The notes under the pieces: generated by a model | What the model was told of the DNA's origin: nothing | Seen by the model: the letters and a program-made list of their open reading frames with translations, nothing else | The model's database searches: none | Source: Candidatus Freyarchaeum deiterrae | Lineage (GTDB): Archaea > Asgardarchaeota > Jordiarchaeia > Jordiarchaeales > Jordiarchaeaceae | Direction of reading: 5' to 3' | DNA: 64,000 bases | NCBI GenBank assembly: GCA_037305845.1 | Contig: CP147778.1 | Location: 768,001 to 832,000 of the forward strand | Shown: piece by piece, positions 6,443-42,536 of the stretch | Position numbering within the stretch: position 1 is the stretch's first letter | Layout: each line of letters starts with the position of its first letter | Program-made: the position numbers and the translations under genes

Positions 6443-7723
6443 ATGTGTTTCGCGATGGCAGAGGAAAACTCGTTCCAAAATGTGTTGAATCAATTGGAAA
6501 AAACGGCTGAAATAATTAAACTTGATCCCAATATTCATAACTTTCTCAAAAGACCAGCGCGCTCATTGGAAGTATCCATACCAGTTAGGATGGATGATGG
6601 AAGCATTCAAGTTTTCGAAGGATACCGAGTACAATATAATTATGCACGTGGACCCTGTAAAGGAGGAATAAGATACCATCCCTCTGTGACTTTCGATGAG
6701 GTCAAAGCCTTAGCGGCACTAATGACTTGGAAATGCGCGGTTGTGGACATACCTTACGGCGGAGCCAAAGGAGGAGTTAAATGTGAAACCAAGGGGATGT
6801 CCGAGAGAGAATTGGAAAGACTAACTCGAAGATACACTTACATGATTATGCCAATTATAGGACCTGAAAAGGATATACCTGCGCCCGATATGTATACCGA
6901 CGAAAAGACCATGGCTTGGATGATGGACACTTATTCCATGATAACCGGGTACTCCGTGCCTGGAGTGGTGACAGGTAAACCTGTGGAACTGGGTGGGACT
7001 AAGGGTAGATCATATTCAACAGGTAAGGGAGTGATGTTCATAACCCGGAGAGCACTCGAATGCTACAATATACCTATAGAAGGTGCTACGATTGCTATCC
7101 AAGGTTTTGGAAAAGTAGGCTCATACGCAGCAGAGTTTCTGGCTGAAAAGGGATGTAAAATAGTCGGCGTCACAACTATGGATGGGGGCCTATTCAATCC
7201 AGATGGTTTGGACATACCTAAACTGTCAGAACATTATAGATTGGGGAAACCTTTTTCCGAATTTGATTATAAAAACACTGAATACGTATCAGATGTTGAT
7301 AAGGCGAATAAGCAGCTTATTAGTATGAACGTGGATGTACTGATCCCCGCTGCTATGGAGAATCAAATAACCCCTGAAAACGCAGGCGACATAGAAGCGA
7401 AGGTGATAGTGGAAGGCGCCAACGGTCCCACGACACCCAAAGCAGATGAAATCTTGATAGACCGCGGTATACCGGTGGTACCAGATATTCTAGCGAATGC
7501 CGGAGGCGTCATGGTCTCCTACTTCGAGTGGGTACAAGATCTACAAGCCTTCCTATGGACCGAGAAGGAAGTCAATGAAAGACTTAAAGATCTAATGCTC
7601 AAATCTTACGACGACGTGCTCGAGATTCAACAGAAAGAAAAAGTGGATCTACGAACCGCAGCGTACATCCTAGCAGTTAAACGAATAGCGAAGGCGATAG
7701 AGCTAAGAGGATTATTCCCGTAA
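6443..7723 (+). CDS. gdhA: Glutamate dehydrogenase (ELFV family)
   Basis: GPCKGGIRYHP, GGAKGG, DIPAPD, QGFGKVG, EGANGP, PDILANAGGV. Confidence 0.96.
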   Translation: MCFAMAEENSFQNVLNQLEKTAEIIKLDPNIHNFLKRPARSLEVSIPVRMDDGSIQVFEGYRVQYNYARGPCKGGIRYHPSVTFDEVKALAALMTWKCAVVDIPYGGAKGGVKCETKGMSERELERLTRRYTYMIMPIIGPEKDIPAPDMYTDEKTMAWMMDTYSMITGYSVPGVVTGKPVELGGTKGRSYSTGKGVMFITRRALECYNIPIEGATIAIQGFGKVGSYAAEFLAEKGCKIVGVTTMDGGLFNPDGLDIPKLSEHYRLGKPFSEFDYKNTEYVSDVDKANKQLISMNVDVLIPAAMENQITPENAGDIEAKVIVEGANGPTTPKADEILIDRGIPVVPDILANAGGVMVSYFEWVQDLQAFLWTEKEVNERLKDLMLKSYDDVLEIQQKEKVDLRTAAYILAVKRIAKAIELRGLFP

Positions 7724-7979
7724 CCAATAATGAAAAAATTATTTTTCTAAATTTTTCTAATTTTTGGATTTGAAACGAATCCGAGTTTCGATAATGTCTA
7801 ACTGTAGAAATTCTATGAGGATGTTGTTCTAGGGTATACTTTCGATTTTTGTTTTTTCCTGAAGAGCTTTTATCTTTTTTATTTTTTTTATAGAAAAGGT
7901 TATATGTGGGAAGCTATTTGTATTGTTAGCGTTGGTGTACTTACTGCGAACAAGCGAAGTAACATAGAAATCAAAAGTA

Positions 7980-8336
7980 GTGATTAATGTGGACGTAACA
8001 GTAACAGAAAAAGCAAGAGAGTACATCGCCAAAGCGTCGGAATTAATTGCGAAGAATAACGGTAAACCAGCTATAGCCATATGGGCAGAAAGAATACACG
8101 CCTGAGGCGGAAGCAGAGTAGAGATAAACGTTGATGTATACACTGAAAAGGAAATTCTGGAAGCTGAAGGATTCGAAAGCAAAGGCAACCTAAATGGTAC
8201 CAATGTGCCACTCTACATTCAAAAAGCTGCTTACCCATTCCTTCCCGAAAAACTGAACGTCGAACAATCAGGGTCTATGTACAAAAGACTCTACCTAACC
8301 GATGTTTTTCCTGAACGCTGTGAAGGGCGATGTTAA
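7980..8336 (+). CDS. HesB/IscA-like selenoprotein candidate (118 aa, Sec at codon 42)
   Basis: GTG 7980; translation MINVDVTVTEKAREYIAKASELIAKNNGKPAIAIWAERIHA-U-GGSRVEINVDVYTEKE...VFPERCEGRC; single in-frame TGA at 8103-8105, frame open to TAA 8334-8336; HesB-type N-terminus and xUGG motif; SECIS-like hairpin downstream; Sec machinery in window. Confidence 0.82.
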
Positions 8337-8345
8337 AACACGGGG

Positions 8346-8393
8346 GTTGGAGATGACTCACATTCCAAAAAGTAGAGAATGTGGTAATCCGAC
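8346..8393 (+). promoter_or_regulatory. Candidate SECIS element (eukaryote-like, variant core)
   Basis: Helix I GTTGG/CCGAC; core A-TGAC opposite TAAT; helix II TCACATTC/GAATGTGG; A-rich apical loop CAAAAAGTAGA; starts 10 nt after the stop of the UGA-containing ORF. Confidence 0.65.
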
Positions 8394-8471
8394 GGAAAAG
8401 CGCCGTTAAATCCCCCTTAACCATTTCTCATGTAGGCATTCTATGTTAAATTGTAATGTTTAATGCTGTTT

Positions 8472-9266
8472 TTAGAGTATTAATTTTAGTGAGTCGTATC
8501 CAATTAGAATTTTTTCTCTGCTCGGATCCACTTTTTCCTGTAGCTTTTCATGGGGAGGATTCAAGTGTGCGAGATGAACCAGTACCGTCTTCTTGGCTTT
8601 CAGGTTATTTGATAGTTCTATTGCCTCGTTTACAGTCATATGGTGATTCAGAAAGTGAGACGGCCGGTCTATGAAAGCGTCGGTTATCAGGAGGTCGGGA
8701 TTTTTCATGATTCGAATGGATTCCTCTGGAATTCCTATTCCGGTGTCACTGGTAATTACCAACTTTTTGCCATTGATATTGAAACTATAGCCAATTGGCT
8801 GTATGGGTTTTTCCTCGTTCCAGCTGGGGTGATAGACCGGAAAGCCTTGAAACTGAATATTATGGTAGTCGACGGGTTCGAAGAGTTTTATCTCTGTGCG
8901 CTTCGCGTTAATTATTTTGAATCCCATTCTTTCCAGTACAAAATCCAGCGTTTCCTTTAATCCGAATACATGAATAAAATTCTGAACACGGTAAAATTCA
9001 CTGAACCCCAGAATATGATCAAAATGGTGGTGCGTGTAAAGAACCGCTGCGATTCTAGTTATTCTCTCCCTAATTAGTTGAGCTCTGAGATCAGGCCCGG
9101 TATCAATGGCGATATTCCTATCTTTCTCTGGATCGCGTATAAGTATTCCAAAACGAGTTCGAGCATTGGGAATACCCTGCTCCCTCGCTAGGGTACATGT
9201 CTCGCAGAAGCAATTAAATGTGGGAGTCCCAACGGTATCGCCGCTTCCCAGAATTATGATTTCCAA
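8472..9266 (-). CDS. MBL-fold phosphodiesterase (PhnP/YcfH-adjacent type)
   Basis: LGSG..GTP...C.C..C, DTGPDLR, THHHFDH, HHMT, VHLAH. Confidence 0.88.
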   Translation of the reverse strand: MEIIILGSGDTVGTPTFNCFCETCTLAREQGIPNARTRFGILIRDPEKDRNIAIDTGPDLRAQLIRERITRIAAVLYTHHHFDHILGFSEFYRVQNFIHVFGLKETLDFVLERMGFKIINAKRTEIKLFEPVDYHNIQFQGFPVYHPSWNEEKPIQPIGYSFNINGKKLVITSDTGIGIPEESIRIMKNPDLLITDAFIDRPSHFLNHHMTVNEAIELSNNLKAKKTVLVHLAHLNPPHEKLQEKVDPSREKILIGYDSLKLIL

Positions 9267-40068: not shown

Positions 40069-41370
40069 ATGAAAGGGTTAATACCCGAAAATATGCTTGA
40101 AAGAGGAATCATTGTTCTGGAATCCCAACTAGACCCACTACGCATATTATTCGAACAGAGGAAAATTCCGGAAGAGGGATGGAGCGACCCTCAAATAAAA
40201 TTTCTACTCACCGTATTGTCTATGATGGATACAGATAAGGACACCCAAGCCGCTAGGGTAGGTGAGAGAGAAGCTAGAGTAGCCTCACCTCTAGTTTCCG
40301 AACTTGCTGCTGATTTCTGTCATGGTATAGGACGGAGCGGCGAGATATCTGCAGCACAGCCCAAAGCGCCTGGGGCCTCAATAATGTACAACATAGTAAA
40401 TACGCTCGCTTCCGACTCCGTCAGGAAATTCGGAGCCCCGAACCTAAAGCATGCTTTACTGCTTCCTCTGCCCACGGGAATGTCAATCGGTCTCACAATA
40501 TCAGCCATGAGACAGATGAGAAAAGCTAAGGGAAAATATGTTGTTTATCCTCGGATTGATCACAAATCTCCCCTGAAGGCCATAGAGCTCATAGGCTTGG
40601 AGCCGAAAATCATCGAAGGTGAACTGGAGGGTGATGCTGTTATTGTACCCCCGGAAAGGGTTGAGGAGGCGATTGACGAGGAAACGGTTGCAATTCTGTC
40701 CACAACCACATTCTTCCCTCCTCGTGAACCGGACGATGTGAAAGAGATTGCTAAAATCGCACAAGAGCACGACATTCCGCACGTAATTAACAACGCATAC
40801 GGAGTGCAGAGCAGGGAGATAATGAAAAGGATAAAATCAGCAATAGACGCTGGACGCGTGGACGCCGTTGTTCAGAGCACAGACAAAAACTTTCTTACCC
40901 CGATAGGAGGAGCAATTGTCGCCTCACCAAAACAGGAAACCCTAGACGAGATAAGCGAGCAATACGCGGGAAGAGCCACCGCGGCGCCAGCAACACAGTT
41001 CCTAGCAGCGATACTAGCGTTGGGTATCAAAAACTATGAAAAGCTCAGAAATGAACAAGAAGAAAACAGAGGATACCTTGAAGAGAATCTCAAAAAAATC
41101 GCAGGAGAATACGGGGAAAGAGTCCTCAACGTGTACAACCCCATAGCCTGCGCAGTGTCGCTTTCCAAAAGAGACCCACAAAAAGTCGGAGGAGCACTGT
41201 ACAACCTGAGAGTAACCGGACCAAGAGCGCTGGGGCCCACAGACTACGGTTCCTGCTGCAAAAAGTACCCCACAGCTTATATAACAATGAACGCGGCGAT
41301 AGGATCAAGACGTGAGGATATAGAAAAAGCGGTTCAAAAACTAGAAGAAACTCTCAAACAGGTCAGGTAA
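40069..41370 (+). CDS. sepsecS: O-phosphoseryl-tRNA(Sec) selenium transferase (SepSecS)
   Basis: GEREAR, HGIGRSG...QPKAPG, PTGMS, DHKSP, INNAYG, QSTDKNF (PLP Lys), YAGRA. Confidence 0.95.
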   Translation: MKGLIPENMLERGIIVLESQLDPLRILFEQRKIPEEGWSDPQIKFLLTVLSMMDTDKDTQAARVGEREARVASPLVSELAADFCHGIGRSGEISAAQPKAPGASIMYNIVNTLASDSVRKFGAPNLKHALLLPLPTGMSIGLTISAMRQMRKAKGKYVVYPRIDHKSPLKAIELIGLEPKIIEGELEGDAVIVPPERVEEAIDEETVAILSTTTFFPPREPDDVKEIAKIAQEHDIPHVINNAYGVQSREIMKRIKSAIDAGRVDAVVQSTDKNFLTPIGGAIVASPKQETLDEISEQYAGRATAAPATQFLAAILALGIKNYEKLRNEQEENRGYLEENLKKIAGEYGERVLNVYNPIACAVSLSKRDPQKVGGALYNLRVTGPRALGPTDYGSCCKKYPTAYITMNAAIGSRREDIEKAVQKLEETLKQVR

Positions 41371-42383: not shown

Positions 42384-42536
42384 TGGCGGCGGACTGGGGG
42401 ATTTTCGCACTCTTACAGGTACTGGAGGAGTGCATCGAACCCCGAACCCTTACCGGGTTCCACGGATTTGAAGTCCGGGGCAAGGGATTGGGCGAGGCCT
42501 CGATTTTAGGCATCTCCACCCCTGCTACAGTCCGCC
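42384..42536 (-). tRNA. selC: tRNA-Sec (anticodon UCA) with two introns (D-loop 42488-42515; T-loop 42402-42433)
   Basis: 9-bp acceptor GGCGGACTG/CAGTCCGCC + G73 + encoded CCA; 7-bp D-stem; anticodon loop CT-TCA-AA (42469-42471); long variable arm; 4-bp T-stem; removing both introns gives a 93-nt 9/4 tRNA-Sec with UGGU D-loop and UUCGAUU T-loop. Confidence 0.93.

Follow-up and report, generated by a model that had tools for sequence, protein, structure and literature searches.

The genome of Candidatus Freyarchaeum deiterrae, an Asgard archaeon of the class Jordarchaeia/Freyarchaeia, is a single contig of 3.576 Mb with 40.7% G+C. The window considered here is a stretch of 64,000 nucleotides of that contig (C1:768001-832000). 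It carries a 118-codon gene on the plus strand (7980-8336), which begins with a GTG at 7980, ends with a TAA at 8334-8336 and contains a single in-frame TGA (8103-8105). A glutamate dehydrogenase gene lies upstream, and on the other side a gap of 135 nt separates the 118-codon gene from a convergent gene on the minus strand (8472-9266), which encodes a protein of the metallo-beta-lactamase fold. The RNA element described below (8342-8415) is placed in this gap: its outer helix, P1, starts 5 nt past the TAA, and the UGA lies 252 nt upstream of the G.A pair of its kink-turn. In public gene calls, the members of the 118-residue protein family are either split at the selenocysteine (Sec) codon or given a W at that position.

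The letters at 8346-8393 are GTTGG-AGA-TGAC-TCACATTC-CAAAAAGTAGA-GAATGTGG-TAAT-CCGAC. A second hairpin, GACGG/CCGTT, is found at 8391-8395/8403-8407, and an outer helix, GGGGGTT/AATCCCC, at 8342-8348/8409-8415. The sequence-only reading of this DNA had listed these three features, which are present letter for letter. It interpreted them as a SECIS element of the eukaryote type in a 3' UTR; the predicted kink-turn, the AUGA core and the A-rich loop of such an element are indeed all there, and the 3' GA of the core is replaced by AA (A8386-A8387), as had been noticed. The minimum-energy fold of the element has a free energy of -26.0 kcal/mol (z = -2.5 relative to dinucleotide shuffles). The structure predicted from the sequence of 8342-8415 is a three-way junction, which joins P1, a kink-turn arm and a third arm, P3 (Table 1).

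Table 1. Parts of the predicted SECIS element and of the gene that precedes it (positions in the window).
Feature	Position	Strand	Basis
Predicted selenoprotein gene, 118 codons, IscA/HesB-like fold	7980..8336	+	Translation with TGA=U; Sec is residue 42; C-terminal Cys
In-frame UGA, predicted selenocysteine codon, context RIHA-U-GGS	8103..8105	+	Invariant column of the protein alignment
P1 outer helix, 5' strand GGGGGUU	8342..8348	+	Minimum-energy fold; 6-11 bp in 10 of 11 orthologues
Kink-turn C-stem, 5' strand GGA (partner 8388-8390)	8349..8351	+	Two inner pairs hold in all orthologues
Kink-turn bulge L1-L3 GAU (8352-8354), then G8355 (1b), A8356 (2b), C8357 (3b)	8352..8357	+	Sequence reading
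AUGA	8353..8356	+	U, G, A invariant in 11 orthologues
Helix II, 5' strand UCACAUUC	8358..8365	+	94% paired; changes on both sides in 5-6 of 8 pairs
Apical loop of 11 nt, CAAAAAGUAGA, A-rich start	8366..8376	+	Two loop A's invariant or nearly so (orthologue alignment)
Helix II, 3' strand GAAUGUGG	8377..8384	+	Covariation
Kink-turn core, 3' half: U8385 (3n), A8386 (2n, normally G), A8387 (1n)	8385..8387	+	U and last A invariant
C-stem, 3' strand UCC	8388..8390	+	Covariation
P3 third arm: GACGG / loop AAAAGCG / CCGUU	8391..8407	+	100% paired in 11 orthologues
P1 outer helix, 3' strand AAUCCCC	8409..8415	+	Minimum-energy fold; orthologue comparison

Judged by its letters, the core can be read as a simple kink-turn in which position 2n holds a non-standard A. 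In the nomenclature of Lilley, the C-stem consists of the pairs G8349-C8390, G8350-C8389 and A8351-U8388, the bulge of G8352, A8353 and U8354, and the pairs 1b.1n, 2b.2n and 3b.3n are G8355.A8387, A8356.A8386 and C8357.U8385, respectively; the NC helix is helix II. Compared to a simple kink-turn, the GGA/UCC stem, the GAU bulge, the G.A pair and the C.U pair are all in register, and the 2b.2n pair, A.A, is non-standard. All genomes of the genus (6/6) have A at 2n, and the sister family and the genome G047 have G.

An A at 2n is very rare among natural kink-turns, yet those that have it fold and bind the L7Ae of A. fulgidus (PMC3985660). Huang and Lilley (2014, PMC3985660) described such a case in Thelohania solenopsae: the Kt-23 of this organism has a 3-nt bulge and a G.A pair followed by A.A at 2b.2n, as in the element, and it forms a kink-turn and binds archaeal L7Ae. 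Kt-23 is a structural motif of the ribosome, whereas the motif here would be a recoding signal in an mRNA, whose counterparts in the sister family have the standard G at 2n. By analogy, the A-A pair is probably compatible with an L7Ae-bound kink-turn, as the sequence-only reading had supposed, and A at 2n would be a tolerated core variant, fixed in the genus, rather than the sign of a different mechanism. The genome encodes two small proteins with an L7Ae domain; no SBP2-like protein was found in it.

A similar RNA is present 5-25 nt past the stop codon in each relative that bears the UGA. In ten such elements, 93.8% of the cells of the C-stem, helix II and P3 are paired, compared to 41-58% for partners shifted along the alignment. 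Changes on both sides affect seven pairs in these ten elements (7-11 across 10-11 orthologous 3' UTRs), and no shuffle attains the observed covariation score. In an alignment of eleven sequences, helix II is 94% paired, with compensatory changes in six of its eight pairs, and P3 is 100% paired, with compensatory changes in three of its five pairs. P1 is kept through swaps of UU/AA to AA/UU and has quite different sequences in the sister family, and it measures 6-11 bp in ten of the eleven. The unpaired letters of the core (U, G, A on one side and U, A on the other) are invariant in the 11 orthologues, while the helices vary; the apical loops read (C/U)AAA(A/G)G....

A descriptor limited to the hairpin of the published lokiSECIS matches the 3.58-Mb genome at 13 sites, compared to 3-6 sites in each of five first-order Markov genomes. 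Three of the 13 sites lie directly behind UGA-containing genes, namely the 118-codon gene, hdrA and mvhD. The fold energy, this excess of descriptor sites and the pairing among orthologues, with its changes on both sides, indicate that the element is beyond chance.

Other genes of the same genome carry elements of their own. The hdrA gene has two Sec codons and mvhD has one, each gene with its own SECIS element, and selD has an element which is type II-like. The junction of P1, kink-turn arm and P3 is common to the minimum free energy folds of the four SECIS elements examined (4/4: the 118-residue protein's gene, hdrA, mvhD and selD). An arm equivalent to P3, whose loop contains GC(A/G), stands behind hdrA, mvhD and selD. 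The AA core occurs only at the 118-residue protein's gene; the cores of the three other elements have GA. Similar hairpins, whose absence at orthologues and other selenoprotein genes would have refuted the sequence-only reading by its own terms, are present in ten relatives and behind these three genes.

The same reading had regarded the second hairpin and the outer helix as competitors of helix I (GUUGG/CCGAC), and it proposed that the RNA might be a conformational switch. In such a switch, helix I would alternate with these two helices, so that the SECIS would be turned on or off. A helix I of 5 bp can be drawn in this genome and in one relative (G002), and it cannot coexist with part of P1 and P3. 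However, helix I is 51% paired overall, and at its three outer pairs 6-8 of the 11 orthologues are unpaired. Forcing it costs about 2.6 kcal/mol, which corresponds to about 1.4% of the ensemble, and the three-way fold behind hdrA, mvhD and selD comes without a helix I alternative. Since helix I is poorly paired and rare in the ensemble, the comparison lends no support to a switch, which is very unlikely. P3 and P1 are conserved and helix I is not: the helices described as competing are therefore real structure, that of a three-way junction.

The comparison can be extended to other Asgard families. In 24 genomes of four families, mvhD is followed by a kink-turn arm and then by a short hairpin. 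The stem of this side hairpin varies in sequence from family to family, and its loop nearly always holds GC(A/G). In one family, the mvhD element is the exact published Loki form, whose stem has 8 bp plus a single non-canonical pair and whose loop, AAAAA...G, measures 11 nt. P3 is present in 33 of 35 elements, and P1 has at least 5 bp in 25 of 35; for the mvhD elements, both helices were counted per sequence, not by alignment column.

A covariance model, R1, was trained solely on the elements of the 118-residue protein's gene, with no mvhD or hdrA element in the training set. On 68 kb of mvhD, hdrA and selD loci, with the filters off, R1 matched the mvhD SECIS of 18 out of 19 loci, which come from four Asgard families. 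The E-values of these matches are modest (3e-4 to 1.4), and the argument lies in the location of the matches; most of them span the full model, including P3. The hdrA SECIS was matched in at least four loci, and matches on the hdrA side are seen in G001, G004 and G005. R1 missed the type II element of selD and both mvhD elements of one family (f16). Over the whole genome, its sole match is the element itself, among the 150 of 1116 candidates that were scored.

A permissive descriptor of the three-way junction gave 322 matches in the genome and was too loose. With [AG]UGA and a GC in the P3 loop as additional constraints, 22 matches are left, and only the element of the 118-residue protein's gene and the mvhD SECIS are located behind UGA genes. 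One look-alike, at C1:941368 on the plus strand, consists of a GUGA...AA hairpin, an arm that resembles P3 (loop AAGCA) and a closing helix of 5 bp. It was dropped because no gene with an in-frame TGA lies upstream of it on its strand, and it is possibly a product of chance.

The element could also be a generic structure of the 3' end, a stabiliser or a terminator hairpin in which AUGA is incidental; read-through of the UGA, or breakage of the gene, would then be unrelated to it. The gap between two convergent genes is a place where 3'-end structures are common. However, no T-run follows the element, and its unpaired core letters are the invariant ones. It co-occurs with the in-frame TGA in ten further genomes, and R1 finds known SECIS sites, whereas chance sites of such a shape amount to about 5 per genome. 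A generic structure is therefore extremely improbable. The chance that the kink-turn has another job than recoding, as a box C/D-like sRNA or an L7Ae-binding regulatory site, is next to negligible: the core fits a simple kink-turn well, and GAGAUGA agrees with box C (RUGAUGA) at six of seven positions, but there is no box D (CUGA) partner, no guide region and no Rfam C/D family at the site (the only snoRNA match, elsewhere, has E = 6.4), and the position and orientation are fixed, just 3' of the UGA-containing gene, in every genome. The box C/D sRNA, terminator and pseudogene readings were rejected on these grounds.

The host has the machinery that a SECIS element would serve. SelB is encoded in the window at about 38658 (+, 295 bits) and SepSecS at 40225-41355 (+, 438 bits); the two genes are neighbours, at a distance of 30 kb downstream from the SECIS. 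SelD is also present (220 bits), with an in-frame TGA of its own. The selD frame (C1:2457962-2458894, L042) contains a TAA in addition to the Sec TGA. An anticodon loop CUUCAAA, on the minus strand at 42464-42476, fits a tRNA-Sec; neither ARAGORN nor Rfam gave a match to a tRNA-Sec over the genome.

The layout of the element, AUGA-N9-11-nt A-rich loop-N9-AA, matches that of the published lokiSECIS, and the AA after the stem was reported for the VhuU of Loki (Mariotti et al. 2016, PMC4989117). Huang, Xiao and Zhang (2024, PMC11227280) covered more than 400 Asgard genomes; their model has the core GA_[G/A]A, they describe seven selenoprotein families, and they report AUGA_AA in several Asgard clades, for hdrA, frhD and frhA. 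For Jordarchaeia, Sun et al. (2021, PMC9723677) reported SECIS elements and, as selenoproteins, HdrA, Prx and MvhD, and the text of Valentin-Alvarado et al. (2024, PMC11291895) mentions, for 'Ca. Freyarchaeum deiterrae', the Sec machinery, 'multiple eukaryotic-like' SECIS, HdrA, a Prx-like protein, SPS and VhuU. The AUGA_[G/A]A type of element and its AA variant appear in these earlier papers, and both are therefore already published. The suggestion of the sequence-only reading that the element is an undescribed, lineage-specific variant does not hold, its layout being that of the lokiSECIS with an AA variant on record in PMC4989117 and PMC11227280; nor is the type new, since eukaryote-like SECIS elements were already reported for Jordarchaeia and Freyarchaeia (PMC9723677, PMC11291895).

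The element shares most of its features with the lokiSECIS, or Asgard type I, elements. It is located in the 3' UTR, just past the stop codon of a gene with a conserved in-frame UGA. The AUGA stands directly 5' of the upper stem, and the [G/A]A (here AA) directly 3' of it. The stem has nine positions (eight Watson-Crick pairs and a non-canonical C.U) and the loop 11 nt, for model ranges of 7-15 bp and 8-20 nt. The lokiSECIS hosts, like this one, have a machinery of the PSTK/SepSecS type without SBP2. The loop of the lokiSECIS starts with AAAAA and ends in a G preceded by A, whereas here it reads C-AAAAA-GUAG-A, so that both features are one base off. The published Asgard models, as their texts give them, comprise the core, the upper stem and the loop (plus a 'lower stem' and an 'internal loop'), whereas P3 and a three-way junction closed by P1 are features of the element described here. 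The texts of PMC4989117, PMC11227280 and PMC9723677 make no mention of a three-way junction or of a second hairpin in an Asgard SECIS, and none came up in a literature search.

With the eukaryotic type I SECIS, the element has in common a kink-turn-like AUGA core with purine-A opposite, an A-rich loop, a location in the 3' UTR and a presumed action at a distance (252 nt here). It differs by a far shorter helix II (8-9 positions), by a simple kink-turn with a 3-nt bulge in place of a large internal loop, and by the third arm. Consistent with the earlier expectation that a standard search could miss such an element, the Rfam SECIS families gave no match at E <= 10 in the region 7700-8700, and at the gathering score Rfam gave no SECIS, tRNA or other family over the whole window. 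The Euryarchaeal SECIS (Methanococcales/Methanopyrus) likewise lies in the 3' UTR and belongs to a system that depends on archaeal SelB, but its GAA/A asymmetric bulge and the three G-C pairs above it are absent from 8337-8425, where the core is AUGA/AA.

Relatives of the protein encoded by the 118-codon gene occur in each of the five other genomes of the genus (55-62% identity), in five of five genomes of the sister family (37-41% identity, the copy of G009 being a truncated pseudogene), and in one genome of another family (26% identity). Within the phylum, the protein family is therefore found in the ten other Jordarchaeales genomes searched (10/10, counting the pseudogene of G009) and in one genome elsewhere. 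Ten relatives, nine of them from Jordarchaeales and one from the other family, keep the Sec TGA, and the protein is conserved on both sides of it. The Sec column shows no variation, and the eight aligned sequences that extend to the C-terminus all have a C-terminal Cys (8/8).

An AlphaFold2 model of the protein, built with a ten-sequence alignment, has a pLDDT of 86.5 and is confident across the Sec site. The top ten Foldseek matches of this model are all IscA, SufA or other HesB-fold proteins (TM 0.43-0.62). In the model, Sec 42 is located on a beta-hairpin which matches the site of the first Cys ligand of IscA. The predicted fold is thus the one shared by the HesB-like selenoprotein (TIGR01911) and the IscA/SufA carriers (TM 0.54-0.62), and the likeness to IscA/SufA includes the position of the Sec on this hairpin and the conserved C-terminal Cys. 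The motif of the 118-residue family is U-[GR]-[GS]-S (U-G-G-S here), compared to UxGP in the HesB-like TIGR01911, a family that none of ten members matches at E <= 1.

The 118-residue family falls below every curated threshold. The best NCBIfam match is NF041239, 'CC/Se motif family (seleno)protein' (E 4.6e-5, under the cut-off), and the match to Fe-S_biosyn of Pfam (E 0.004) also fails to reach the threshold. A search of the PDB sequences with a profile of the protein gave no meaningful match. Among 1.84 billion representative proteins, 16 match the family, and nearly all of them are fragments that end at the UGA. Two full-length public copies have a W at the Sec site, which results from a TGA=W gene call, and no Cys form of the family is seen among the 16 matches. 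The family is absent from the seven Asgard selenoprotein families in the text of Huang et al. (PMC11227280), none of which is HesB/IscA-like, and it is not among the selenoproteins named in the texts on Jordarchaeia and Freyarchaeia (PMC9723677, PMC11291895). The IscA/HesB-fold selenoprotein thus appears to be a previously unlisted Asgard family, in a comparison that covers the texts of these sources.

The pseudogene of G009 (L029:1411-1800) has lost the N-terminal half that bears the Sec, and one of its Trp codons has become a TGA. In its 3' region, a clean deletion has removed the kink-turn arm from the SECIS; AUGA, P3 and P1 are still there. This is a natural co-loss of the Sec-bearing half and of the kink-turn arm. 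In the orthologue of G010 (L027:1803-1850), the frame does not end at the usual ...G-x-C stop but enters the SECIS, which indicates a one-base indel near the 3' end; an assembly error and a real frameshift are both possible.

Taken together, the conserved TGA, the presence of the Sec machinery, the covariation, the shared fold, the cross-recognition by R1, the spacing of a lokiSECIS, the co-loss in G009 and a core compatible with L7Ae suggest that the element is very probably a functional SECIS of the known Asgard kind, which serves the gene 7980-8336. The kinked arm on the mRNA would be held by an L7Ae-type protein or by another archaeal factor. Once bound, the arm would bring SelB.GTP.Sec-tRNASec to a ribosome that has the UGA 8103-8105 in its A site, and Sec would be inserted there in place of termination. 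P1 and P3 would be structural parts, which probably set the orientation of the kink-turn arm, rather than a competing fold.

A broader proposal, which is possible but is put forward tentatively, is that the conserved Asgard SECIS platform is not the hairpin alone but the whole three-way junction, made of P1, the kink-turn arm and a P3 whose loop nearly always contains GC(A/G). P3 might be a contact for the archaeal SECIS-binding factor or for SelB, and A at 2n might be tolerated because the kink would be held by the junction or the factor and not by the G.A/A.G tandem. In that case, the element would also mark a previously unlisted, always-Sec family of the IscA fold.

Since this type of SECIS is already published, the element leaves the picture of Sec decoding unchanged. 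It adds to the Asgard selenoproteome a family of the IscA/HesB fold which is apparently unlisted and always carries Sec. It also provides a third independent gene family with a co-varying side hairpin and closing helix, which supports the three-way-junction model of the Asgard SECIS. The published descriptors, as far as their texts go, omit this junction, which could sharpen the specificity of searches for Asgard selenoproteins. The natural G-to-A exchange at 2n between sister lineages provides a ready pair for identifying the protein that reads the archaeal SECIS.

A few observations concern the genes of the mvhD and hdrA loci. The hdrA and mvhD elements, at C1:1249442 and 1249971 (L041:2143 and 2672), are one for each gene in this genus; in Lokiarchaeota, both genes are reported to be served by one element behind VhuD (PMC4989117). 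At C1:1249972-1249974 (L041:2673-2675), mvhD stops on a UGA that belongs to the AUGA in the core of its SECIS, and its coding region takes in the 5' strand of P1. The ribosome that terminates there must therefore unwind the signal that is used for the upstream Sec codon. A second MvhD-like match, at C1:6018-6395 on the minus strand, contains two TGA codons and lies inside an open frame of 592 codons.
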